64,000 nt of DNA from positions 9,858,001 through 9,922,000 of the forward strand of contig OX597826.1 of NCBI GenBank assembly GCA_951406725.2. Direction: 5' to 3'. This document shows positions 1 to 39,401 of this stretch, in pieces. A program made the translations under genes and the position numbers. Position 1 is the first letter of the stretch. Each line of letters starts with the position of its first letter. This DNA is from Octopus vulgaris (Eukaryota). Under the pieces are notes generated by a model. That model saw only the letters and a list, made by a program, of their open reading frames with translations, was not told the origin of the DNA and did no database searches.

Positions 1-518
1 AATACTACAAAAATAGAATACAAAAAAAGGAAATTTGTTGTTACTGCTAACATCTGTTACAGAATGTAAATAAATGATAGAGGAGGGGATTAAAGTTTTC
101 TTCTTTAGATTAGGGACTTTAAAATGATTAGGAAAAGTGGGGTTTGAATGCTGCTCTTTCAGGCAGTAAGTATAACACTGACAAACACGGTGCCATGCAG
201 ATTTGTATTCTACAGGATGTTATAATATAGTTGGTAGTGTGCAGGTTATCTCTTTCTCCGTTTATCCATCTCCTGAATGCTAATCTTACTGGATTTATCT
301 CCCTTTTCTTCCCTTATATGTAAAGTGGTTGGCATTAGGGCATCCAGCCAAATCACACAACTGGAACTTGGTGCAGCTCTAGCCAAATCATTCGACCCAT
401 TCCAGAATGGAAAACAGACATCAAATGATGATGATGATGGTATATACTAACAACGGTTTAGTCAGTGTCATTGCCCAAGTTTGTAAGTGGTACTTTATTT
501 TATCAATAGTATCAACAA

Positions 519-612
519 GTGGAGGCACAATGGCCCATGGTTGAGGAAGCAGCCTCGCGTTCATAGGATCGCAGTTTCGATTCCCAGACTGGGCGTTGTG
601 AGTGCTTATTGT
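519..612 (+). mobile_element. tRNA-derived SINE head (family A), 3'-truncated
   Basis: gtggaggcacaatggcccatggttg...gtttcgattcccagactgggcg matches the head of the copies at 6809, 39402 and 48156. Confidence 0.75.
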
Positions 613-723
613 TTATCATTAGTTACATCAGGAATATACTTTTACCATTGTTGGATGTATCCCTCTTTGCTAACATATACTTGCGTCTCATTCACTATAC
701 ACACACACACATACATGTATCTC

Positions 724-19550: not shown

Positions 19551-20249
19551 AATAGTTCTACTTAACTGCACAAGCTGATTTGGAAAATGATAAACAAGTA
19601 GGGACAATATAAAACAAAACCTATGTTGACTAATTAAATGCTAACAGATTTTGGTTTGATATGACTAGGCCCAAAGTTCCATGAATTTTGAAAATGGGAT
19701 ATTGTAATGTCTGTTTTTTTTCTGAAAAGATTAACGTAGGTGAATGGAATCAAAACTGGATTGCAATCTTGGATTTTTTTAAGGAGCACATCTCTCATTC
19801 CGTTGTGATTGGCAGGAAAGGAAGGTTTATCTAGCAGAAGCTCTTGCCATGTTCTTTCGGGAACATGTCAACCATTTTTGATGTCCATTTGGAAACAAGC
19901 TGGCTACATCATGACAAACCACAAAGGAGGGCAGTCACAGCATCTCTGGCCCTCAGTGAAGATTGACTCCAGAGAACACAAAACGCTTTAGAAATTCTGC
20001 TCAGCCTCTGTCTACAAATACACTATAAGCAGTCTTGCCCCTTAATCAAAACAGGTTTAGAGAAGAGAGGTGGGGTTAATTTTGCGCAACTCTCCCTCAC
20101 TTAAATCCAATTTCTGTGTAAATCAGCAGATGAAGATGTACTGAAAGCTGTGGTCACAAAATGCAGTTGTCTGATGTCATGTGATGACCATCCTTCACTG
20201 ATATTGAAGTAGTGATGGAGTCCAGCAGCCCCTTAGTAACTAAGTAGAG

Positions 20250-21330
20250 ACTTCAAAGACTAAACTGCGTAACTCCACAGTCCAAGGAAGAGTCTAGAAA
20301 AAGTGGTCTACACACCTTTCAGTCACATGGAATGTGCTAATGCTCATGGACAGCACCAAAGCAGAAAAACTGAGGAGAATGGTCCGGATTGCCAGGGAGC
20401 CAGGTCACAGAAACAAGAACTTCACTGGTTCATGCCACTTCCACCAGCAACCCTAACACACAGTGGCGACAAACCCTGAGGAAGTCAAGGTAACGTTCTA
20501 AGATGAATTGAACCTTCTTTGTCAAGTTTATGTGAAATCAAGACAAATTTATTGCTCTTAGTGATTTCAATGCTGGGGTCAGATATGACTGAAAACCAGT
20601 GAGTGATCATTGACAATACTGAAATCAGAAGATACAACAGATATAGTCTTAAGCAGAGAACATGTGCAGAGTCTACAACTCACAAATCCAATTTTTGCCT
20701 GCTTCACTACAAGACATCAAGGATGCGACCTCACTCCAATCACTTGGAATGGCTACACACATCAAATCCAGATTCAGTGTCTGTATACAGCCTCAGAAAA
20801 AGAAGACCCTTAATCAGGAAGCTGAATGTCTTGATGCAGCTCTGTTTCCATGAAAGTGACAATCAAGAGACCAAAATGCGAAAAGCTTCACCTTACTTCT
20901 GCTGGTGTCAAAGACCAACTCTATTAAATGGCACTTGAATAACTTGGTGCCAAATCGTACAAGCACATGGTTAAGTACTATAAACCTGAGATACAGGCCT
21001 TCCTGGACCAGAGACAGTCTTCTCAGAGCTCGTCACAATCCAAATGAGGTGCTTTTGTTATGATATGCAAGATAATCTAAGGTGAATTTCAGACGCAGGA
21101 CTCAGAGTCAATAAGAGAGTGGATATTCAGATGTATACAGATAGCAAGAATATGAGATGTTTTGCAAGCCATCTACAGCCCATGGCCGGTGTATTTCTGC
21201 TGCTGAGTACAAATAGTTCAGCAGTGATGATGAACAAGAAGACCTCTGGCAAAAATTAGCTGAGCAGGTCCACTCTCCTGGAATCTCCCTTCACTGACAA
21301 TGGAGGCAATAAGTTACTTCAACGAGAGAG
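20250..21330 (+). mobile_element. Ancient RTE LINE remnant, AP-endonuclease region
   Basis: Residual motifs TNPEEVK..F*DELN, IALSDFNAGV (GDFNA) and MRPHSNH (WMHPRSKHW-like); heavily frameshifted. Confidence 0.65.
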
Positions 21331-26248: not shown

Positions 26249-28588
26249 TCAAAGATTTGAAGGTGCTGTGCCTTGGTTGCTGCTAACAATAAGATCAAGC
26301 ATATATTCAAGGTGCTCAGAAGATATCTGATGAAAAACTTCCTGGTGAAATGGGACGTTGGGTAGCAACACTTTGAGAAAGGTCATTGTCTTTTGCTGCA
26401 AGGATAAGAGACACTTCTCTGGTGACTTACACAAACTTACTTTCATGTCCAGCAACATGGCTTGACCCTGTAAGGTCTTAACGTTTATTTTATCCACACT
26501 GGTATTGTCTGCACCCATGGAACATAAAGAAGTGGGTAATGATGATGATGACGATGAAGACGACGAAGAAGATGATGATGATGATAATAATAATGATGAA
26601 GATGACAGAGGTAATGAAGTTTTATCGGATGACACTGGTTTACCTGTCTCCACCAGAGAAATTGCTTCACTGATTAAAACGTCCACATCCTCTGAGTCAG
26701 TTCGAATGGACTCCAGAAATGGATACAGTTTTGGAAATAATACTGAAAACAGCAAATGTAACTTGTTACGCAGTGAGATTAGTCTTAATGTATTCTGAAC
26801 AAAAGGTTGGGAGTTACCAGGCAACTTATAAGCACACGACCGTGATCGCCGCCGCCTCTTTTTCTCTGGTGACGAAGACATACAGCACGGACACATTCGC
26901 CTTCGCCGTATCCGAGGACCTTCCTGTTCGCAGTTGGTAAAATAGTTATAGGTATAAGACGGTCGTTTATTGGCCTTGCGTCGTGTCTCTTGCACTTTAG
27001 TAATTTTGTTTACGTGTTCTAGGGGGTCAACACTGCTGTTGCTGCCACTGCTAAAGGCAGAGTCTTCAGAAAAACAACCCTGATGGGAGTTCTTGTCATA
27101 AGAATTACCAACAGGGTCGCTGTCTAACTCGGATTTAAGCGTTTCAGAGTACATACTATGCTTTAAGCAATCAATGGACTGGTCAGCCAAGTTGACACAG
27201 ATCTTAGAGTCTGTTGAATTTGCTACCTTCTCTTGATGCAATAAAAGGCTACCTGTGGTGGTCTTTGGACATTTTTTACTAGGGTCAACTGAGGATTCAC
27301 TGGAGGTAATGTCATGTTTTTCATTCGCAACAGAAGTGTTTAGACGGTTTTTTACAGACTCTGAGTTCTTAAACAGAGAGAAAATATTTTTTTCTTCGGT
27401 CTTCCAATGAACATCACCAGATTGTTGTCTTTCAGGAATGCGATGTTCATTTTCAGAAATGGAATTATTATTATTATTAGTATTGGTGCTAGAAGATTTT
27501 TTAGAACAAGAATCAGGAATAATTAAGTTTTCAGGTAGTTGACCGTGTTGACATTTATCAGAACCTGGCTTGAAAACATCGCACAATCGCACGTTTTTCA
27601 GGATGCGACGTTCCCCAGTGGGTCCAGTGGACACAGGACATTCAAGAGGTTTACGCCAAAAGCGAACATACTTTCGCCTAACAAGGCTGCAGGCAAGCTG
27701 TAGTGACTTACCATTTGCTGAGTTGAGGTTTTCTGCAGATATAGAGTGTGTTGAGTTATCGTTACATTCATCATGGCTAACTTCCACGGAAGAATGGTCT
27801 TCCTCCATGTGTCCATTTAGTAATTTTTCTTTCAGTGTATTGTCAAGTAGGCTGTCGCTGGACTGCGTCACAGAGAAAGGAGTGGGCGATTGTTCAGGTG
27901 AGTCAGCAGAATACACAAACAACTTCCGTTTAAATTCAGTGCTTGGGGACTTTTTCAACTGGGAGTATTTTTTAACAACTCGTTTACAAGTCAATTGTTT
28001 GGGTGAGGTCTTACAGGGCACACGGGTCAGTTTCTTGTGTATGCCCTCTGATAGTTGCCACTCATCAAAACACTCGCTAAGACGTTTGATACAGACAGTG
28101 GGACGGGCAGAGTTTAGGACACTATTAAAAGGCCCCCGGATGGTAGAGGTTTCAACAGCCATCACTGATAAAGGAGATCTGTCAGAATTATGGCCACATA
28201 CAGACTCCTTCAAAGCACAGCTAACATGTCGGCTAACTTCAGCAGTTAAAGAGTAAACATCATATCGAAGGTGTTCTCCAGATCTTTGTAATTTCGTTAT
28301 CCAAATTGTAAGATACTGCACAGGACTATACAGAACCCGAAGGATCAGGTGTTCATGTGCAATACCATGTAGATATTGCACAAGATTGTAGAAAGATGAA
28401 CAATTTTGTAATGATTCGTTTGAGTTTGTAACTGGAACCAATAATGCTGCCACTTGTGCAAGCCAGTGGAAACATGGCAAGAGGAATTCATCAATAACAG
28501 AAGACAGATAAGCGAAATGGCAACAAGAGTGTTGAGAAAGTCGTTTACAAGGCCATAAAGAGAAATGTTTTACACTTTGAATAGTCAT
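26249..28588 (-). CDS. Uncharacterised ~779-aa protein; CDS in one large terminal exon; Ser/Asn low-complexity middle, basic NLS-like clusters, duplicated C-terminal helical motif
   Basis: 2.34-kb stop-free non-repetitive ORF. In-frame TGA at 28601-28603 closes the frame upstream, so the first ATG is 28588 (the track's TTG at 28600 is unlikely). Strong acceptor (polyT..ttttcag) just upstream, exon starts 28616. Basic clusters RIRRRRMCPCC and KKRRRRSR. A later strong-context ATG at 28162 is an alternative start. Confidence 0.85.
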   Translation of the reverse strand: MTIQSVKHFSLWPCKRLSQHSCCHFAYLSSVIDEFLLPCFHWLAQVAALLVPVTNSNESLQNCSSFYNLVQYLHGIAHEHLILRVLYSPVQYLTIWITKLQRSGEHLRYDVYSLTAEVSRHVSCALKESVCGHNSDRSPLSVMAVETSTIRGPFNSVLNSARPTVCIKRLSECFDEWQLSEGIHKKLTRVPCKTSPKQLTCKRVVKKYSQLKKSPSTEFKRKLFVYSADSPEQSPTPFSVTQSSDSLLDNTLKEKLLNGHMEEDHSSVEVSHDECNDNSTHSISAENLNSANGKSLQLACSLVRRKYVRFWRKPLECPVSTGPTGERRILKNVRLCDVFKPGSDKCQHGQLPENLIIPDSCSKKSSSTNTNNNNNSISENEHRIPERQQSGDVHWKTEEKNIFSLFKNSESVKNRLNTSVANEKHDITSSESSVDPSKKCPKTTTGSLLLHQEKVANSTDSKICVNLADQSIDCLKHSMYSETLKSELDSDPVGNSYDKNSHQGCFSEDSAFSSGSNSSVDPLEHVNKITKVQETRRKANKRPSYTYNYFTNCEQEGPRIRRRRMCPCCMSSSPEKKRRRRSRSCAYKLPGNSQPFVQNTLRLISLRNKLHLLFSVLFPKLYPFLESIRTDSEDVDVLISEAISLVETGKPVSSDKTSLPLSSSSLLLSSSSSSSSSSSSSSSLPTSLCSMGADNTSVDKINVKTLQGQAMLLDMKVSLCKSPEKCLLSLQQKTMTFLKVLLPNVPFHQEVFHQISSEHLEYMLDLIVSSNQGTAPSNL

Positions 28589-28793
28589 ATGAAGATGCAA
28601 TCATGTCTAAAATGACCTGAAAATAGAAAAAAAAAAGAAGAATGTAAAACAGCAATAGCAATGGAAAATAAAAAACTTTATTTAGCAAACTAAATAAAGC
28701 TTAAACAAAATCAACAATTTTTTTGTCATGGAAAAGAAAACTGTGCAAATTGATGTTCTTCCACCTTAGTATGTTATAGCTTACTTTCTGCAC

Positions 28794-28794
<1 letters not shown>

Positions 28795-28830
<36 letters not shown>

Positions 28831-29005
28831 ATGTATGCATAATTATGTATGTATGTATATGTATGTATGTGTGTATATGTATGTATGTATATGTATGTGT
28901 ATATATGTATGTATGTATATGTATGTGTATATATGTATGTATGTATATGTATATGTATGTATATATATATGTATGTATATATATATGTATGTATATATAT
29001 ATATT
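28795..29005. repeat. (TA)n/(TATG)n microsatellite
   Basis: Directly visible. Confidence 0.95.
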
Positions 29006-29208
29006 ATATTCTGTTGTGTCTGGGGAGAGTCATTTTCTTTTTGTGTCTTATAATGTAACACACTCACCAGTAAAATTTCCACTTATTTCTTATTTTTATT
29101 TTCCTATTAGGAAAATAAATATAAGAAATAAGTGAAAATTTTACCGGTGAGTGTGTTACATTATAAGACACAAAAAGAAAATGACTCTCCCCAGACACAA
29201 CAGAATAT
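29006..29208. repeat. Long inverted repeat, ~100-bp arms centred on 29107
   Basis: atattctgttgtgtctgggg...ttccta-t-taggaa...ccccagacacaacagaatat; 3 mismatches by eye. Confidence 0.95.
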
Positions 29209-29673
29209 GCTTCAACACACGAACTCATATAAAGAATCTTACAAACCAAATCCAAAAACGAAATATATGTTATACATATTTGTGAAAAACAATACATAAG
29301 AGTTTATTCATTAATTTGCTGCTAAAGTTTTGATCATAATTTTTTCTGTAAGCGTTTGTGATGCTGTAACCTTCTTACACCTGGGCCACTGTGTCTAACT
29401 TTACTCTCCGTCTGGGCTCCCAAGCAACAAAGCAAAACAATTGCATATAAAGTTCAAGAGTAAGGATTTTTGGCAAACTAATGGACAGAATCTGCTGCAT
29501 CCTTTTATTTTCTGTGCCAGTAATCCAGCAGAGATGGCATTTAACTTATTCCCACTATAGCAGGAACATGGCATGACTGGATAAACTTTCAATACAAGTA
29601 TGAGTGTATGTATGCGTGTGTGTGTTAAGCAATGCTCTAGCCTTTGTCTTTTACTGGTTTTTAACCAATTATA

Positions 29674-29919
29674 TGAGGTATACTAGCCATCTCAATATGG
29701 CTAACCACTAAGGGTGGGTGTTACTGTAGCTTGTAGCCTCAGGAGAACAGTCTCCAGCTGGCTTTAGGCACACTTTTGCCTAAAGCCAGCTGGAGACTGT
29801 TCTCCTGAGGCTACAAGCTACAGTAACACCCACCCTTAGTGGTTAGTCATATTGAGATGGCTAGTATACCTCACATTGTTGTGCAGTTTACTGTTTACAC
29901 CTCGTTCAGAGATTTATTA
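29674..29919. mobile_element. Foldback insertion (97-bp arms, 29674-29873) with 13-bp TSD
   Basis: Arms pair around loop 29771-29776 with 1 mismatch; TTAACCAATTATA at 29661-29673 and 29920-29932. Confidence 0.9.
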
Positions 29920-32082
29920 TTAACCAATTATAGCAATCCCAGTACTTTTTATAGTTCTATATTTACTGATTGGTAAAGTTACCATTATGATTCAACACTG
30001 ATTTTCTTACTAAGAAGATACCAACTAAACCAGGACTATAATAAAAGACATTTATCCAATGTGCCACACAATGAGAATGAACCCAGAACCACTTGGTTAC
30101 AAAGTGAACTTCTTCACCACAGCCATGTTGATATTAAAGTCATTTGTATTGCTTGTAGCTTCTAATAAGCTATAACATACTAACACCTCATATTTAGTAC
30201 AAGCTCTTCTTTACTACTTCTTCATTATATATTCCTTATGATTTCAAGAAAATCTTACCATAGAGGTATGGCTATGTGGTTACAAAATTCATTTCATAAA
30301 TTTTTGACTGGGTTCAATCCCACTGCACTGCACCTTAAGCACGTGTCTTCTGTTATGACTCAGAACTTTGTGATTCTAAAACTTAAACATTTAGCATTTA
30401 AACCGGCCAAAATTATTCTGCCTGTTTTATGTTCAAACTGGCCAGATCTGGTCTCTCACACCAACCCTACAATATCGTTTTAAAAATTAACAGCTAACTC
30501 ATCAAAATCTCATAGTTACAAGATAATGCATGATTAGTTCAAAACAATTTGGATAAAAAAGCATTAATTTTGGGCAGAATAATGGGAACACTAAAGGGTT
30601 AAACATTTAGCTATATGTATAATATTTTAGTTAATATAAAGTACTTTGTCTTTTAGAGCTACAGCTGACATAAGTGTCCACACTCTGTATCCTATAAGTA
30701 CATATCATAATTAGAGTCTTAACTAACTCATAATCACAATTACACTTGACTAACTCACTTAAAAATCCAACCCACAAAAAGTGGAATTTGGGAAATTGAA
30801 ACTGCGCAAAAGCTGTTGCATATGCATGTGTTTACATCTAAAAGCTTGTGCTGTTTATGTCCTCTAACTTAGCTGTTCAGTAAATAGTGGTCAATGAAAT
30901 AGGTTACATAAAAAGTTGGCTCAAAGACATTACCTCTGTATGGGAACGTTCCAGTAACAGGGTTTCAATGACAAGTGCTCCAGCTGTTCAACCAACAAAA
31001 CTACCTATTCATTGGATTATTATGAAATAGGCCCCGAGTAGTTCAGATGCTCAAACATCTGGTCATGGGAAATATTACTTTACTTGGAAACAGGTAAGAG
31101 TTGGTGACAACCGGCCTCAACAAAATCTGATTGATGCAAGCATGGGAAAGTGGACATTAAAATGATATGCGTATGTACATATGTGGTGATATCACGTAAA
31201 AAGCATTCTGTGGAGTGGTTGGAGATAGGAAGGGCACCCAGATGTTGAAACTATGTCTAAACAGAATATGGAACCTGGTATGACTCCGGTCAAACTGTCC
31301 GACCAATGCCAGCATGGAAAACGGACATTAAATGATGATGATGATAGTGAAACTCTTAACATAATCCTGAAGTAGAATCATTATGAAAGTATTAGAAGGG
31401 CCTTTCAGTCAGATTTCCAGTGCATTCAACGGGCTTTGACAGCTTACATTCACCCCAACACTCTAGCAGAAAGCATATGCCCAAGGTTCCACACTGGGCT
31501 CCAATACAGGACCCTGTGATTCTAAACAAGCTTCTTAATCATTTAGCAAAGCACATACAATCTTAGGTAATGGTAAATACTTTCTCTTTTAGAGCTGCAG
31601 CTAATGTAAGTGTCCACATTTTGATCCTGTCACAAGTGCATTTCACACTCACGGTCAACACTTAACATCCAGCCCACATAACCGTATATAGAAACCCTCA
31701 TCATGTTAAGTAACATTTGTACAGCGTAGCTGATGAGTGTTTCTGTCAAGTGAAATGCTTGAGATGAAACTCATGTGATAGTGGATGTAAACTAACTCCT
31801 AATACACCAAGATATTAAAAGTTCAAGAAACTCTTGCATCCCAGTTTCTAATGGAACTTGTTCATCTCTCGATCTTCAGTAGAAATTTTATGAAGCTACT
31901 GTGTGAGATTCTTTGTATATGCTGTGCTATCAAATTATATACAATCTAAAACAGTTTAAATGTTGATCCACTTCTCGATTACACGAAAATATCTGGAAGT
32001 CAGCCAACTGTTTTTGTAGAATTTTGCTCAGAAAAGCTCTTATATGCACACAATTGTAGAAGAAACATTATACATATACATT

Positions 32083-32426
32083 AGGAGTGGCTATGTGGTA
32101 AATAGCTTGCTTACCAACCACATGATACCGGGTTCAGTCCCACTGCGTGGCACCTTGGGCAAGTGTCTTCTACTATAGCTTCGGGCCGACCAAAGCCTTG
32201 TGAGTGGATTTGGTAGACGGAAACTATATGTGTGTGCTTGTCTCTTACCCAACATCGCTTGACAACCGATGCTGGTGTATTTACATCCCTGTAACTTAGC
32301 AGTTCGGCAAAAGAGACCGATAGAATAAGTACTAGGCTTACAAAGAATAAGTCCTGGGGTCGATTTGCTCGACTAAAAGTGGTGCTCCAGCATGACCACA
32401 GTCAAATGACTGAAACAAGTAAAAGA
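32083..32426 (+). mobile_element. SINE family B
   Basis: A box tggctatgtgg, B box ggttcagtccc, body gcaccttgggcaagtgtc, tail gtaaaaga. Confidence 0.9.
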
Positions 32427-33774
32427 CTATATAATAGGTGCAAACATTGCTATGTATTTAAGAAGTTTGCGTCTTAACCATGTTTCTGTGTTCAATCCCA
32501 CTGCATTGCACCTTGGGCCAACCAAAGTCTTATGAATGGATTTGGTTGATAGAATTTGAAAAGAAGCCTGTTGTGTGTGAGAGAGAATGTTAGCATCCTC
32601 TTGTCTTGATATCACATGATAATTGTAAAAGGGGGGCCCACTGCCATTCATTTCCAATATTCAACAAGGACATGTCCAGCCATGGGGAAATATTACCTTG
32701 CTGGGAACACCTATGGGTAGGCAACAGAAAGGATATCCAGTTGTAGAAAATTTACCTCAGTTATCTCCATCTGACCCATGCAAGGATGGAAAAGTGGACG
32801 TTAAAACAATGACAACGGTTTTATATATATACATTCATATATAACCAGCCAAAATTGCAAAGATGATCTGGAACTCAACTGAGGGTAGAAAACTCTGAAT
32901 GACCCATCCTTGTTTTCTTTGTATCATCTGTCTGGATGTTTTGTGTTCTTGTCCCATTTTTGTATTTTTTATACATAAAATATATATATATATACATACA
33001 CACATGATGCCTTTTGCTTTTAAACTCAGTGACTAATCATTGCATAATACTAATAAAATTTTGTGGAACAGGTATCATAGGTAAGGTCCTAACGAGCTAA
33101 AACAATGATAGTTTCAATTCCTAAGTGTGGACATTTTACTTCATCTGACTGTGTGTATGGCAATACATAGAAGTGTGTAATACCCAACACACATATAACG
33201 GGGTTCTGGTATGGGAGTTCCAGTGTTTTGAGAAATGTGGAATTACCACACTGTTCCCAGGTTCACCCTGTCCCAGAGTAGGAGCACCTGTGAAGGTCCC
33301 ATCTAAGGGTTAATTAGCACATGATTCACTAAGTGTGCAGGATCCCTACTTATCGTTAGAACTTCCTTCTAAAAGGCAAACTCATGAAAAACGTGAAGTG
33401 CTATTTCTAGCAGCCTCAACCTCGGCTGTGCCACTGGTTTTATAGCTGATTGCCCTGAAAATGGATTCAGTGCTGTGCAACACTTTCTCCACTCACAACA
33501 GATTCACACACAAGGACTTCCTAGACATTTGCACAGACTTACTGGGTTTAGGAACTGGTGTTGCTCAGTCGCAAGTTGACGTCCACCGTAAGCATGCATG
33601 GACATTACAAAGTAAAAGTATTTCAAATTTCATGTCAATTAAGGATTTTTCATTTGGATAAACCCTAATTCAAGCCCCCCACACACTCTCTCAGTGAACA
33701 TTCTCATCAAATCACACAAACGAAATTATCGAATCAGTATTAAACAAAAAAAGACAACGAATAAATTTTTTTAC

Positions 33775-33827
33775 CTTGGTGAATACCAAAGACGTTCAGA
33801 GCAGCAACAACACTGAAATTTAATTTC
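33775..33827 (-). other. Upstream 53-nt exon of the minus-strand gene
   Basis: Minus strand reads tcttttttccttttcttttacag|GAAATT...ACCAAG|gtaaaa: long polypyrimidine tract and canonical donor. Confidence 0.75.
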
Positions 33828-34179
33828 CTGTAAAAGAAAAGGAAAAAAGAAAAGACTATAACACAACCACATGAGAAGCAATTAAAATTTTAATCGGATG
33901 TTTTTATCCAACGAAATAACGTGATGAAGAGGGAATGATTGACAGACAATATTAATTTAAGAGATATATTAACCACGTGGTATTAAATAGTGATTGCATT
34001 AATAAATATATATATATATATAACCTAATGCATGTCAGAGAAACAGAATTTATCCGTTACATGTTCAAGTTTAAAGACAAGTGAGGTGTCCCCATCGTAG
34101 AGGAAGGATCTGTTATCTTAGTAGTCAATGAAATTCGTTTACAGTTGTTTGTCCGTTCTTAATGAAGATAACGTGCACG

Positions 34180-34190
34180 CACACACACTT

Positions 34191-34236
<46 letters not shown>

Positions 34237-34435
34237 TATATATACACACACACACATATATATATATATACACACACACATATATACACACACACACACA
34301 TATATATATACACACACACACATATATATACACACACACACATATATATATACACACACATATATATACACACACACATATATATATATATACACATACA
34401 CACATACACATATATATACACACACACACACACAT

Positions 34436-34480
<45 letters not shown>

Positions 34481-34555
34481 TATATATGTATATATATACA
34501 CACACACACATATATATATATATATACACACACACTTATATATATTATATATATA
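34180..34555. repeat. (TA)n(CA)n compound microsatellite
   Basis: Directly visible. Confidence 0.95.
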
Positions 34556-34845
34556 AGTGTGAAATACATAGGCACGCACGATACATATACACATAATCAC
34601 GTTTATACAAACACGGGATTCACTGATCTGTTTAAAACCCTGAAATACGATTTCAACTCACTTCCTCCGCCAGCATCGAAGTGTTTGCAACATTTCACGT
34701 GTTTGTCCCACCTCGTCCACAGAATCCCGCTCTTGGTCCAGTGTCATGCGTGATCTTACCCCAAGTCAGTAATTGCAGTCTCTATTAGTAAAGCCTTAAA
34801 AGCCCACCCGAGACCACGATATATATATATATATATATATGTATG

Positions 34846-35029
34846 TATATATACCAATTAAGGCCTGAACACGAAAAGTGGACAGTCAACATGCTAGATA
34901 TAGACGTCAAATCGCCATTCTCCACAAAAGGTTATGTTCTCAACCTTTTGTGGAGAATGGCGATTTGACGTCTATATCTAGCATGTTGACTGTCCACTTT
35001 TCGTGTTCAGTCCGTAATTGGTATATATA
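34846..35029. repeat. Long inverted repeat, 88-bp arms, 8-nt loop
   Basis: Arms pair around 34934-34941 with 2 mismatches; right side extends to about 35113, followed by tatatatatgtatgtatatat which also flanks the left side. Confidence 0.95.
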
Positions 35030-35169
35030 AATATTTTAATCTTCGGATTCTTTTTAATATGCTAGAGCACTGGTTTTAATTGATAAATATCAATTTCTAC
35101 CCTTAATTAATATTATATATATGTATGTATATATGGAAGGAGTGAGCAGAATATGAAAGGAAAGCTTAC

Positions 35170-35243
35170 CTAGACTTTGTAAATTTTCGGTAACGTTGTA
35201 CGGGGAAAGTACAGAAAGTGAAAGGGTCTCCTTTGCGAAGTAC
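35170..35243 (-). other. Upstream 74-nt exon of the minus-strand gene
   Basis: Minus strand reads ctttcttttgcttatctttccag|GTACTT...GTCTAG|gtaagc: near-consensus acceptor and donor. Confidence 0.75.
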
Positions 35244-35630
35244 CTGGAAAGATAAGCAAAAGAAAGATTATTTACGGAAAATACCTTCAATATCTCGAAT
35301 TGAAACATACAGAAATCGTAACATTTCTAAAGAGAAATAAATCACTACATATATATATAAGTTACAAAAGGGGTCGAAGGATGTGTAGGACTTGTGTTGC
35401 GGTATATAAATAAAATTTAAATGGGGAAAAAACGGAATGCGAGCACCGCGATCGAACCGGGCTTCTATACACATATACACATTTTTAGAAATATCTATGA
35501 TACTGCAGGAATTTAGACTCCCACAACATATATATATACATACATGAGTTCCTATTGATCGTCTTCGGGCAGGTGGTAGTGAATGCCACGGCTGGAATTA
35601 GCCGTCATTTTTCAAAAATAAAGAAGACAC

Positions 35631-35700
35631 CTTCGTCATCATTAGAATAAATATTACAAAATGACGTTACTGTTTAAATCTGAAATTTAGCGACTTCCTG
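35631..35700 (-). other. Probable first exon; contains ATGATG of the candidate uORF
   Basis: Ends AAG|gtgtct (weak donor) and lies directly downstream of a CpG-containing promoter-like stretch. The 5' boundary is a guess. Confidence 0.45.
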
Positions 35701-35860
35701 TAGGCACGAAAACAAACAGGAGTTACTCCCCCTTGCTCGCATAGCACTCCCCCTTGCTCGTATAGCACCCCCTACCTCTCTCCGCATAAGGTACTGTGTG
35801 TATGCGCGCGCGAAGTTTTTGTGGGGGGGGGATTTCTTATGCGGTGTCCTGTGTCGTAAG
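35690..35860 (-). promoter_or_regulatory. Putative promoter of the minus-strand gene
   Basis: ETS-type CAGGAAGT (35693-35700), 21-bp tandem repeat (35725-35766), GCGCGCGCG and a G-run; CpG visibly more frequent from about 34.6 to 39 kb than elsewhere. Confidence 0.5.
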
Positions 35861-35863
35861 AAC

Positions 35864-36268
35864 GGATCTTTTCGGTTTGAACGGCAGTTTTTGACAATTT
35901 CTATGTAACTAAAAAGTTTTAAACTTCGTATACTGGTAGAATGTGTTTATAAAAACTTTCTCTTGGCTTTATTGAGAAAATTCTATAGTTTGTAAGATAT
36001 TTGGGTTTTTTTCAATTTCTGCAATTTCAACCAATCACTGACGTCCATTGAGGTAAACAACATTCTGTGCCGTATCAATATGTCCCTCGTTTAATAAACA
36101 GATTGAGTTTATTTACATTTGTGAAGAAAAAAAGATACCCTTCCCCCATCCCTAACCCTAACCCTAAAATAGATTGAAATGCAATAGATCGATACTAGGA
36201 TCATAATTATGGGTGACAATTTCATATGACACCGCTAGAAAAAACTGCCGTTCAAACCGAAAAGATCC
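35864..36268. mobile_element. MITE with GG..CC termini and 8-bp TSD (Merlin-like or MULE-like)
   Basis: 29-bp perfect TIR ggatcttttcggtttgaacggcagttttt; TSD GTAAGAAC at 35856-35863 and 36269-36276; internal cctaaccctaaccctaa. Confidence 0.88.
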
Positions 36269-36408
36269 GTAAGAACTTTAATTCCCAACTACATAGATCT
36301 GAGTTCAGTCGTACTTCATGGCAACTTGGACGTCTGAATCTTCTACTATAGCCCTGAGCCGAGCAAGCCATGTGGTGGATTTCAGACAGAAACTGAAAAA
36401 AAGCCCGC

Positions 36409-36476
<68 letters not shown>

Positions 36477-37149
36477 TATGTGTGTGTGTGTATCTTAGTG
36501 TTTTTCTCATCACCACCGCTTGACAATCGGAGTTAGTTTGTTCACGGCCTCTTATGACAGCGATTCGGCAAAAAGGGACCCACAGAATATATGGTACAAT
36601 ATGATTCATTTTAAGAATTTTAGGTGGATTAATAAATATCAAACAGACTACACAACAGAAGTTAATTTGAATCTGTTAAATACAATTTAGTTCTTTACTT
36701 TTCATAGATTATTTTATATTTTAAGTATATATATTTAGACTGCCTCTAGAAGACTGGAAAATCCAGAAATCCGGTCCTATATTACCAAATAATTGGTCCG
36801 GTACCAATTATAGAACCGCAACGTCAAGGGAGAGCAGCGGAAAGTGGTACCTAGGCCTTTATTTTTGTTGGTTATTTTCGTCTATTACGTTTTTAAGAAT
36901 GTCAGATTTGCAAAAAAGAAAAGAAAGAAACTGAAACCATATCTTTTATTTTTTTACCTGTTTCAGTCATTGGACTGCGACCATACTGGAACATCGCCTC
37001 GAAGGATTTTAGTCGAACAGATAGACCCCCACCCAATATTTCTTTTCTCTAAAGACTGATACTTATTCTGTCAGTTTCTTCGCCAAGTCACTAAGTTATG
37101 CGGACGTAAACGAAACGGTACTAAGGGACTAACAAAGATGCATATCTCT

Positions 37150-37276
37150 CTCTCTCTCTGTCAGATAAATTAGATAGATAGAGAGAGAGAGATAGGTAGA
37201 TAGATGGGTAGGTGAGTAGGTAGATAGATAGATAGAGAGATAGATAGATAGGTAGATAGATGGGTAGGTGAGTAGG

Positions 37277-37331
<55 letters not shown>

Positions 37332-37390
37332 GTATGTAGATAGATAGATAGGTATGTAGGTAGATAGATAGGTATGTAGGTAGATAGATA
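37150..37390. repeat. (GATA)n/(GGTA)n array inside a diverged family B SINE (about 36943-37535, minus)
   Basis: Directly visible; SINE halves on both sides. Confidence 0.9.
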
Positions 37391-38022
37391 TGCGCGCGCG
37401 ACAAGCTTCTTTCAGTTTCCGCCATCCAAATCCACTAAAGATTTCGTCGACTCGGGACCACGGAAGACACCTGTCGAAGATGTTACACTGTGAGATTGAA
37501 CCCGGAATCACGTGGTTTAGAAAGCAAACTGCATATCACACCCACCCACGTGTATAATATATAATTTATTTTTAAAATTAGACAAATCACTCGGGGATGC
37601 CGCAATGAAGAAAATAAATAGTTAAGGTAGTAATAACAATATTTAATTGCAGGGAGGTTCAGCGCATTAAATGTCTGAAATACACACATGGATCTATCTG
37701 TGTGTGTGTGTCCCCTTTTATTCCATTATTTGCTTCGGCCATTGGTCACTGTGGTCACGCAGTGGGACACTGCTTTGAAGAGTTTTAGCCAACCAAATCG
37801 AATCTAGTACATATTTTAAAGTCTGGTGATACTTATCGTAACAGTATATTTTAACAGAGTCCGTTAAGTTAGCAGGACGTAAACAAACTAACACCCGTTG
37901 TCAAGTGGTGAGACACACATACATATAGAACAGACATACATTATTGCTTGTCATTTGAACCACCAAAAATTAACACTGAAAATAATAAACAGTCAAGTGC
38001 GTGTGTGTGCGCGTGTATGTAT

Positions 38023-38082
<60 letters not shown>

Positions 38083-38749
38083 CGTTCCTACAAAACAAAG
38101 TCAGAAATTATTTAGTGCGTCACAGATCATAATTTCTGCCGATTCGTATCTTTAAGCATTGTAGATGACGGTTCTCAAAATAAATAAATAAATGTGTGGG
38201 TGTGAAAGAGGCAGAGAGCGACAGATTTGTCCCACACGAGTTTTCATATTTTTATCATTTTCGATTTCCTTTAAAAACGAAAAAGAATTACGTTTTAAAC
38301 GTCCGAACTTATGATTCTCGAAAACCATGGGAAACTTTTGACCAGCGACATCAATATCCCCCACAACCACACAGAATCGTAATCTGCGATGTTTGAAATG
38401 TATCTGAAGAAATGGCTTTTGACACACAAGTTTATTTCTTTCGGAATACGTGTGTGTATGCGTGCGTGCATGCACACAAACACACAGATGTGTCTACTCT
38501 TTTCGTCTACCAAATTCCTTCACATGGCATTTAGCTGGTTCAGAACTATTGCAGAAAAGTGTCGTGCAGCAGAATGAATCCATGCGGTTGCGAAGCAAAC
38601 TCGTTGAGCACAAAGCCATAACAGCATCATATATTTTTCTCTTAATTATAGTGTGTGTGCGCGTGTAGAATAGTGTGAAACACTGTGCCACCGTACAATG
38701 AAAAATATACACTCCTTAACTAACATTGGCAAAATGCAGATATTCTATA

Positions 38750-38867
38750 GAGTGGTTGTATACTGTCAACTTAACGTGACAGTCCCGTAACGGAATTACC
38801 GCTGTTTAGCCCTCTATCGCTCCACCACCGTACATATCTCTATGAGATATTTAGAAATTTAATATTT
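38750..38867. mobile_element. 118-bp insertion with 13-bp TSD
   Basis: CAGATATTCTATA at 38737-38749 and 38868-38880. Confidence 0.7.
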
Positions 38868-39401
38868 CAGATATTCTATATTTTTTTATTTATTGTAAGC
38901 GTTCTAAACGTTACAGCTGGCCAGAAAAATAGATGTCATTTGTGTGACGTCAGTGTCCCAAGAAAAGACACCGAACACCCGCTGGCTCTGTCCACATGCC
39001 TAACAGAGCTCACATAAGGTCATAACAACTGCTTCAGTAATGAGGGCAGGTTTGTACCTCAAAAACTAGATAAGTCCCAGCTGTTTCAAACCGCAACATC
39101 ACCCAGTTGTTTGTTGCATTTTGGAAATGTCTTCTTTGCCGCTAATTAAACATGTAAACTGATCGCAATTATTTTCACTCCTTTATCATTATTTACTTCA
39201 GAGTATCGAGACAGGCACAGGCGTGGCTGTAATGTTAAGAAGCTTGCTTTCCAACTACGTGGTTTCAGGTTCAATCCTACTGTGTGGAACCCTGGGCATG
39301 TCGTTTAAAATAGCCCCAGGCTATGAGTGGATTTGGTAGATGGGGTCTGAAGGAAGCTTGTATATGTACATACATGTGTGTGTATAAATATATGTATATA
39401 T

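Follow-up and report, generated by a model that had tools for sequence, protein, structure and literature searches.

At this locus of Octopus vulgaris, one cephalopod gene probably has exons 2-4 as its spliced 5' leader. This leader, which is rich in upstream open reading frames (uORFs), likely dampens an orphan protein of 779 amino acids. With a probability of roughly 0.6, these exons are a leader whose long upstream frame acts as an ordinary uORF that lowers the output of the 779-aa protein, and does not encode a second functional protein. Within the window, by which we mean the whole stretch of 64,000 nucleotides that was analysed, joining 35642-35631, 35243-35170, 33827-33775 and 28616-28585 on the minus strand gives 171 nt, or 56 codons, whose closing TGA (28587-28585) overlaps the ATG of the 779-aa ORF. 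The initial annotation had described this join and proposed from it a bicistronic or uORF-regulated mRNA. The join itself is reproduced exactly in the sequence. Taken as a whole, we regard the observation as real in part and its interpretation as partly supported: regulation by a uORF remains the likely reading, whereas the bicistronic mRNA has one gene model in its favor and no other positive support. The features are collected in Table 1.

Table 1. Features of the locus in window coordinates; a dot marks a feature without strand.
Feature	Positions	Strand	Basis or remarks
Main ORF, 779 aa, single exon, orphan protein	26249..28588	-	full-length relatives
Second in-frame ATG, Met143	28160..28162	-	strong context; well-conserved block begins; start of P0002
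142-codon N-terminal extension before Met143	28163..28588	-	fast-evolving, open and in frame
Second upstream AUG ORF, 19 codons, out of frame, spans main start	28545..28604	-	sequence
ATGA overlap (main start and upstream-frame stop)	28585..28588	-	sequence; Met-Thr-Ile in both distant relatives
Leader part of last exon (exon 4)	28589..28616	-	acceptor 19/20 pyrimidines; used by P0020
Leader exon 3	33775..33827	-	53 nt; P0020 residues 83-101
Leader exon 2	35170..35243	-	74 nt; P0020 residues 59-83; contig cover in run X13
Candidate first exon piece of the initial annotation, two ATGs, weak donor	35631..35642	-	donor score 5.3
Candidate alternative local ATG with stronger donor	35776..35787	-	donor score 8.0; 56 codons, same frame
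CpG-rich block, possible local promoter	34001..39000	.	o/e 0.81-1.21, versus about 0.2-0.45 in intron 3

Comparison with its relatives indicates that the main ORF is real and constrained from Met1. Full-length relatives occur in Argonauta (65%) and in a Logan cluster (44%), and the N-terminal extension is identical to theirs at 84/139 and 41/129 aligned positions (z 25 and 8.9). In neutral runs with substitutions only, the extension stayed free of stops in 23/2000 and 2/2000 cases, the latter under drift to 32% identity, and we thus rule out Met143 as the sole start with the first 142 codons as leader. The public O. vulgaris model P0002 starts at Met143 and omits the extension; it also splices out a C-terminal region present in both relatives, and the public annotation at this locus is therefore not fully reliable. 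No Pfam family was found for the main ORF, the relatives giving only weak rows under the cut-off, and the protein drew a single PDB sequence row (E 0.84). Its ESM Atlas matches all fell below 0.8 (ICE1-like, 0.79) and were not accepted as an identity. The model of its C-terminal part is of low confidence (pLDDT 54); its best structural match reaches Z 5.9 with an rmsd of 4.0 over 95 residues, and a Foldseek search with it gave no match.

The main start codon stands in a weak context, with C at -3 and A at +4. Both distant relatives begin with Met-Thr-Ile, and since such a start forces ATGA, the overlap is implied in three lineages. Because exon 4 contains two main-frame stops in its leader part, the main ORF cannot extend upstream, and the upstream frame is ruled out as an in-frame extension of it. 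A further AUG at 28604, at -16 to the main start, sits in the last exon and hence in every exon model; it was absent from the initial annotation. This AUG places an out-of-frame upstream start in the mature mRNA, as in any ordinary uORF, while for the 56-codon frame the same property hinges on the choice of first exon. A longer product that arises from the upstream frame through recoding at the overlap (readthrough, selenocysteine insertion or frameshifting) is extremely improbable: the CTA after the stop presumably resembles a readthrough context, but readthrough would add just four codons before a TAA, Rfam gave no match at gathering score in 17500-40000, and none of the three main-ORF clusters carries an extension ahead of Met1.

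Support for exons 2-4 comes from a public O. vulgaris gene model, CAI9731570.1 (P0020 in Table 1), which encodes 110 amino acids and is independent of the initial prediction. Residues 59-110 of this model are identical to exons 2-3-4 in the upstream frame, and both share the closing TGA. Strong acceptors precede exons 2, 3 and 4, with pyrimidines at 18, 19 and 19 of 20 positions, respectively, and exon 2 is single copy by genome search. By a rough matrix, the donors of exons 2 and 3 score 9.6 and 8.2, compared with 5.3 for the first donor, which had rightly been called weak. The public model differs at the first exon: the piece 35631..35642 is missing, and exon 2 is reached instead from C13:9946361-9946288 and C13:9967364-9967265, two exons that fall beyond the window, at upstream distances of 53 and 74 kb. 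This model, too, is reproduced exactly from the genome, with GT-AG junctions. Different exon joins, which the initial annotation had named as the outcome that would count against it, are thus found at the first exon, whereas the joins of exons 2-4 and the stop agree.

Of 24 sequencing runs listed, 20 contain the sequence; none of these is recorded as RNA, all being guessed to be RNA or of unspecified kind, and four of them were compared over 34600-36400. A repeat of high copy number, at roughly 35850-36270, dominates their tables, and 4116 pieces and 267 loose ends lie beyond those listed. One of the four, X13, has contig cover in both bins of exon 2. Among the contigs listed for these four repeat-dominated runs there is neither cover in the bins 35576-35758, which hold the candidate first exon, nor a 35243-35631 joint, which is uninformative either way; nor is there any splice joint for exons 2-4, which agree with the gene model.

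The choice of first exon determines what the upstream frame encodes, and there are four options: 56 aa from the proposed piece, 56 aa from the ATG with its donor at 35776, the annotated 110 aa, and a frame of 114 codons that contains no AUG. The particular 56-aa microprotein that had been proposed is not upheld, as at least four candidates exist for the first exon and the proposed one is at odds with the public model. We judge it quite unlikely that a local promoter at 35.6-35.8 kb, as an alternative to a far one, produces an isoform with exactly that 56-codon uORF. The CpG-rich block is a possible local promoter, the DNA is single copy, a motif at 35700 is one we take to be ETS-like, and two in-phase pairs of ATG and donor are available. 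On the other hand, the donor of the proposed piece competes with a better one at 35544 (score 6.8) that yields no such frame, and an AG preceded by pyrimidines is found immediately upstream of 35697, which would allow the piece to be internal and not a first exon. Moreover, 37% of 3,000 shuffles contain at least one in-phase ATG plus donor (score ≥5) within 700 nt, the proposed start is absent from the public model, and 113 such candidates are found across the 78.7 kb upstream.

L004, the annotated exon some 53 kb upstream, combines a good donor with a position next to one of the CpG-richest stretches in the 114 kb examined. It also carries what we take to be a YY1-like motif, the sole one on the minus strand from the window out to 110 kb. 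If L004 is the first exon, the frame remains open for 114 codons, which include near-cognate starts, and the AUGs of the exon open other uORFs of 84, 46, 11, 36 and 39 codons. The acceptor that CAI9731570.1 uses in L004 has no pyrimidine tract, and the first exon of that model is located in AT-rich DNA among repeats. According to an excerpt of PMC10700109, the O. vulgaris annotation pipeline combined transcript evidence with predictions from Augustus and GeneMark; we infer that accessions of the CAI9731570.1 type stem from this pipeline, in which case ab initio prediction could have added the far first exon.

This possibility favors a reading in which the main isoform starts at L004, the upstream frame has no AUG and is never translated, and the overlap arises incidentally from the Met-Thr start; 28% of main-ORF codons begin with A. 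Near-cognate starts are nevertheless present in the frame and two local AUG options remain, and we consider an untranslated frame very unlikely. It overlaps our preferred explanation, from which it differs solely in denying translation of the upstream frame.

How surprising is the open frame itself? It is open over exons 2-4 in 6.9% of 20,000 shuffles, and a rough product suggests that about 1 in 140 leaders of such a build would show this arrangement by chance, which is not rare genome-wide. The 114-codon frame over four exons is open in 0.56% of full shuffles and in 7.7% when the L004 exon alone is shuffled; the former value (p 0.006) is uncorrected, and L004 was found via a gene model already selected for an open frame.

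In a codon test trained on one gene, the 56-codon frame scores -0.10, equal to the wrong-frame mean and thus non-coding-like; of 14 chunks of true coding sequence, 12 lie above -0.07 and just one below -0.10. In the same one-gene test the frame of 110 codons reaches +0.09, which is intermediate between the coding and wrong-frame classes. Within the 74-nt L004 exon, the annotated frame has a score of +0.29. The homologue check on the upstream peptide came back empty, in searches of weak coverage, the sequence collection giving no record for LOC106884327 itself. One search gave two matches, CAI9731570.1 itself and an unrelated repeat protein; in a second the only candidate was again CAI9731570.1; and a third gave none at 30-59 aa. 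That repeat protein, P0019 from pigeon, matched at 43% and was set aside as unrelated. Short eukaryotic ORFs are seldom called in annotations. The peptide has no Pfam family and no usable ESM Atlas match, and two metagenome scans for orthologous leader DNA confirmed none of 188 and 64 pattern matches. Among the papers listed for cephalopod uORFs or ribosome profiling none was relevant, and no paper on LOC106884327 was found.

These results bear on whether the mRNA is truly bicistronic, that is, whether a conserved small protein (110 aa, or one begun at a near-cognate start within the 114 codons) is made and the AUGA then hands ribosomes on, which we regard as unlikely. The frame is annotated as a protein, by a model that can be reproduced; it is open over 114 codons, ends at an ATGA implied in three lineages, and scores +0.29 within L004; and CASQ2 provides a precedent for cellular coupling without the viral termination-reinitiation element TURBS (PMC5972666, in excerpt). 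Against this stand the lack of a homologue or family in poorly covering searches, the acceptor without a pyrimidine tract and the first exon in AT-rich, repeat-bearing DNA of the model, the C-terminal region spliced out in P0002, and the possibility that Met-Thr-Ile is kept for the protein's sake, in an extension that is 32% identical overall. Its bolder form is doubtful to a greater degree: a cephalopod-wide bicistronic gene, with an orphan microprotein encoded by four or five exons that span as much as 80 kb, alternative N-termini from its first exons, and a conserved AUGA from which ribosomes move on to Met1 although no TURBS is present. If that were true, the overlap would set the ratio of long (Met1) to short (Met143) main protein.

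Under the preferred explanation, an ordinary uORF, transcripts would start mainly at the CpG-rich L004 exon, with the local CpG block perhaps a second start, and the first exon would decide between a frame of 56 or 110 codons that begins with an AUG and one of 114 codons that lacks it. Termination of ribosomes translating the upstream frame would take place on the main start, and most of them would be recycled, because ordinary reinitiation does not tolerate so long a frame. Synthesis of the main protein would then depend on leaky scanning past the upstream AUGs or on reinitiation after shorter uORFs, with initiation at the weak Met1 or the strong Met143. The points we count against this explanation include the 114 open codons, the Met-Thr-Ile in three lineages, the pipeline's 110-aa call, the weak coverage of the homologue searches, and a codon test that is trained on one gene and places the 110-codon version between the classes.

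As an ordinary overlapping uORF, the finding matters little in itself. The analysis nevertheless amends two public gene models of the locus, and it identifies an N-terminal extension of 142 aa that is conserved yet missing from the O. vulgaris model. Should the frame prove conserved and coupled, it would be among the few cellular stop-start couplings without a TURBS, in a lineage-specific bicistronic gene.

Known systems place the overlap in context; all are cited from excerpts of the sources. A TURBS, as defined in the excerpt of PMC5972666, has a stop and start that overlap or lie at most 14 nt apart and a UGGGA motif 1 located 40-90 nt upstream of the stop. The overlap is present here (28588-28585), but the 155 nt of exons 2-4 contain no exact UGGGA, only one-mismatch words at -84 and -42; this absence weighs against the bicistronic reading and in particular against the virus-type coupled reinitiation suggested initially. 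The locus therefore shares the AUGA-type overlap of caliciviruses and influenza B (excerpts of PMC5972666 and PMC10275272), and differs in having no motif 1, a cellular gene, and an upstream frame of putative translation. In the leaders of the human SLAMF1 long isoform and mouse embryonic GAD (PMC5972666, in part), the last uORF stop overlaps the next start, as here; those have UGAUG and a TURBS-like UGGGA, whereas this gene has AUGA and no exact UGGGA. The bicistronic uORF microproteins STREMI and SLC35A4 (PMC13303939, in part) likewise have a small annotated upstream ORF before the main coding sequence; here, by contrast, no homologue, family or coding signature was found, and the frame is known from sequence and a gene model. 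Ordinary animal uORFs and overlapping uORFs, carried by about half of vertebrate transcripts according to the excerpt of PMC5972666, differ from the present case in that its frame has at least 52 codons, spreads over at least three introns and has alternative first-exon candidates. The likeness lies in the upstream AUGs of a spliced leader, with one frame that ends on the main start and another that runs past it, and the repression with leaky scanning described there is likely shared as well.

The initial annotation had described a spliced 56-codon uORF whose stop overlaps the main start codon, and its four-piece join proves exact: 171 nt that end over the ATG of a single-exon main ORF. The locus (C13:9858001-9922000, minus strand) belongs to a genome rich in AT and in microsatellites. 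The acceptors of exons 2-4 contain 18-19 pyrimidines per 20 nt. Scored with a rough consensus matrix, the donors of exons 2 and 3 reach 9.6 and 8.2, against 5.3 for the first donor, which had been called weak. Whatever the isoform, the main start is also spanned by a 19-codon frame beginning at an AUG at -16, which that annotation overlooked.

Features of the locus (window positions unless marked C13 or L002)
Feature	Coordinates	Strand	Remark
Proposed first exon	35642-35631	-	
Exon 2	35243-35170	-	
Exon 3	33827-33775	-	another frame: four consecutive cysteines, within a 24-codon uORF if exon 2 is skipped
Exon 4	28616-28585	-	
Stop of upstream frame (TGA)	28587-28585	-	
AUG at -16	28604	-	
Main ORF	28588-26249	-	779 aa
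Residues 1-142	28588-28163	-	
Out-of-frame ORF	28556-28545	-	three codons, G at +4, starts on the Trp12 codon; Trp12 kept in three lineages
Met143	28162-28160	-	second in-frame ATG
Splice in P0002	26818 to 25905	-	
C-terminal region	26815-26252	-	predicted structure: two similar three-helix units parted by a serine run; directly preceded by a CPCC motif within arginine-rich sequence
Probable 3' UTR	~26248-18500	-	~7.7 kb, T-rich runs (by eye); no Rfam match
GC-richer stretch in 3' UTR	~19900-21300		possible decayed retroelement (by eye)
Leader-intron inverted repeats	~29010-29210, ~29670-29850, ~34870-35010		long, near-perfect (by eye); one ~160 nt beyond the exon 2 donor
High-copy short repeat	35850-36270		just upstream of proposed first exon; very deep contig cover
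Same repeat at the annotated first-exon locus	L002 ~260-690		just downstream of that exon
Third CpG-rich block	C13 ~9923000-9935000		between both candidate promoters

A HMMER search with the exon 2 frame against 1.84 billion representatives returned two proteins, CAI9731570.1 (O. vulgaris, 110 aa) and a repeat protein that we set aside as unrelated. Residues 59-110 of CAI9731570.1 correspond to exons 2, 3 and 4 in the proposed frame, and therefore provide independent backing for those joins. The proposed start fares worse: in this model the first 58 residues are encoded by two exons that lie beyond the window, ~53 and ~74 kb upstream of exon 2. The protein is rebuilt exactly from the genome with GT-AG junctions throughout; the acceptor of L004, one of its upstream exons, has no pyrimidine tract. 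L004 looks like a first exon, having a good donor, CpG-rich DNA upstream that may be a promoter, and a YY1-like motif. Read in this way, the frame stays open for 114 codons with no AUG within, while AUGs inside L004 open other uORFs of 11-84 codons. Such a run arises in 0.56% of full shuffles, or 7.7% when the L004 exon alone is shuffled, a figure that is inflated, since it was a model already selected for an open frame that led to L004.

One published O. vulgaris annotation merged RNA-seq, Iso-Seq, TransDecoder, Augustus, GeneMark and EVM (PMC10700109). CAI9731570.1 and the neighbouring accessions presumably stem from it; since the neighbouring model, P0002, splices a conserved region away, single junctions at this locus may be ab initio. 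That transcripts have exactly the isoform first proposed is unlikely given the different first exon of the public model, even though the proposed region is CpG-rich, single copy and possibly a local promoter. Contigs from 4 of the 20 runs with matching pieces were mapped onto 34600-36400. In run X13 (RNA type guessed) both bins holding exon 2 are covered, with no joint among the contigs displayed, and arithmetic on the bin depths fits one contig from ~35169 to 35223, beginning at the exon 2 boundary. The leader-intron repeats appear MITE-like, and the pre-mRNA would form double-stranded RNA there.

How often would such a frame arise by chance? Of 20,000 dinucleotide shuffles, 6.9% keep a frame ending at the ATGA uninterrupted through exons 2-4; an in-phase ATG plus donor occurs within the 700-nt upstream stretch in 37% of 3,000 (the real stretch has two candidates, the 78.7 kb upstream 113); and 28% of main-ORF codons begin with A. 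The product, a rough one, is about one in 140 similar leaders. We consider an untranslated chance frame decidedly improbable. Recoding is more improbable by far.

Whether a peptide is made is a separate matter. A search for peptide relatives in protein collections of weak coverage found CAI9731570.1 alone (1 of 1 candidates at 60-193 aa, zero at 30-59 aa), and the upstream peptide has no Pfam family or usable ESM Atlas match. These blanks are weak, because the same collection returned no record of LOC106884327, the O. bimaculoides gene, either. We also trained a codon model, using the main ORF alone; given 14 test chunks, it chose the true frame 12 times. With this model the 56-codon frame scores -0.10 and the 110-codon version +0.09, compared with 0.27 +/- 0.24 for true frames, -0.10 +/- 0.21 for wrong frames and 0.01 +/- 0.17 for intron. 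This speaks mildly against the 56-aa peptide, and is neutral for the longer version.

For the main ORF, 7,987 scored candidates yielded three clusters: an Argonauta hians relative (857 aa, 65% identity), P0002 itself (CAI9731569.1; 462 aa, 98%) and a 17-member Logan cluster (824 aa, 44%). The Argonauta and Logan relatives both open with Met-Thr-Ile at the same position; since threonine codons begin with AC, the ATGA is present in three lineages. A conserved bicistronic gene, which would encode both products, nevertheless seems doubtful. Residues 1-142 align in frame with both relatives (z 25 and 8.9; 0 of 500 shuffles as high), and simulated neutral drift to 32% identity left a 142-codon stretch stop-free in only 2 of 2000 runs. 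Thus Met1 is very likely a real start, its weak context notwithstanding. Met143 has a strong context and begins the best-conserved block; the preceding residues change faster, two Logan members differing at 7 of 137 positions there versus 8 of 687 elsewhere. Two protein forms, from Met1 and Met143, are plausible. P0002 starts at Met143, and its splice, which removes a C-terminal helical region kept by both relatives, is likely a mis-annotation. The ORF on Trp12 could be a conserved mini-ORF. Family, structure and fold comparisons assigned the main protein no family or fold; the arginine-rich sequence with the CPCC motif suggests that it is possibly nuclear. Literature listings on LOC106884327 and on cephalopod uORFs and ribosome profiling yielded nothing on this gene.

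We favor, at a probability of roughly 0.6, a spliced leader rich in uORFs, which probably reduces translation of the main ORF, the main protein being made by ribosomes that would leak past the upstream AUGs or reinitiate after shorter uORFs. This part of the initial interpretation is the best supported; the 56-aa peptide and a TURBS-type coupling are not. Long or overlapping uORFs are expected to bar reinitiation (PMC5972666), and rare cellular stop-start couplings occur with and without TURBS-like sequence (PMC5972666). It is improbable, in our estimation, that a conserved coupling free of TURBS selects the long protein form. TURBS coupling requires UGGGA, placed 40-90 nt before the stop codon (PMC5972666; PMC10275272); viral systems carry this motif, whereas the octopus leader, scanned over exons 2-4, has none upstream of its TGA. 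Human bicistronic transcripts were judged by long reads, PhyloCSF and footprints (PMC13303939), whereas the octopus frame is known here from sequence and a gene model.
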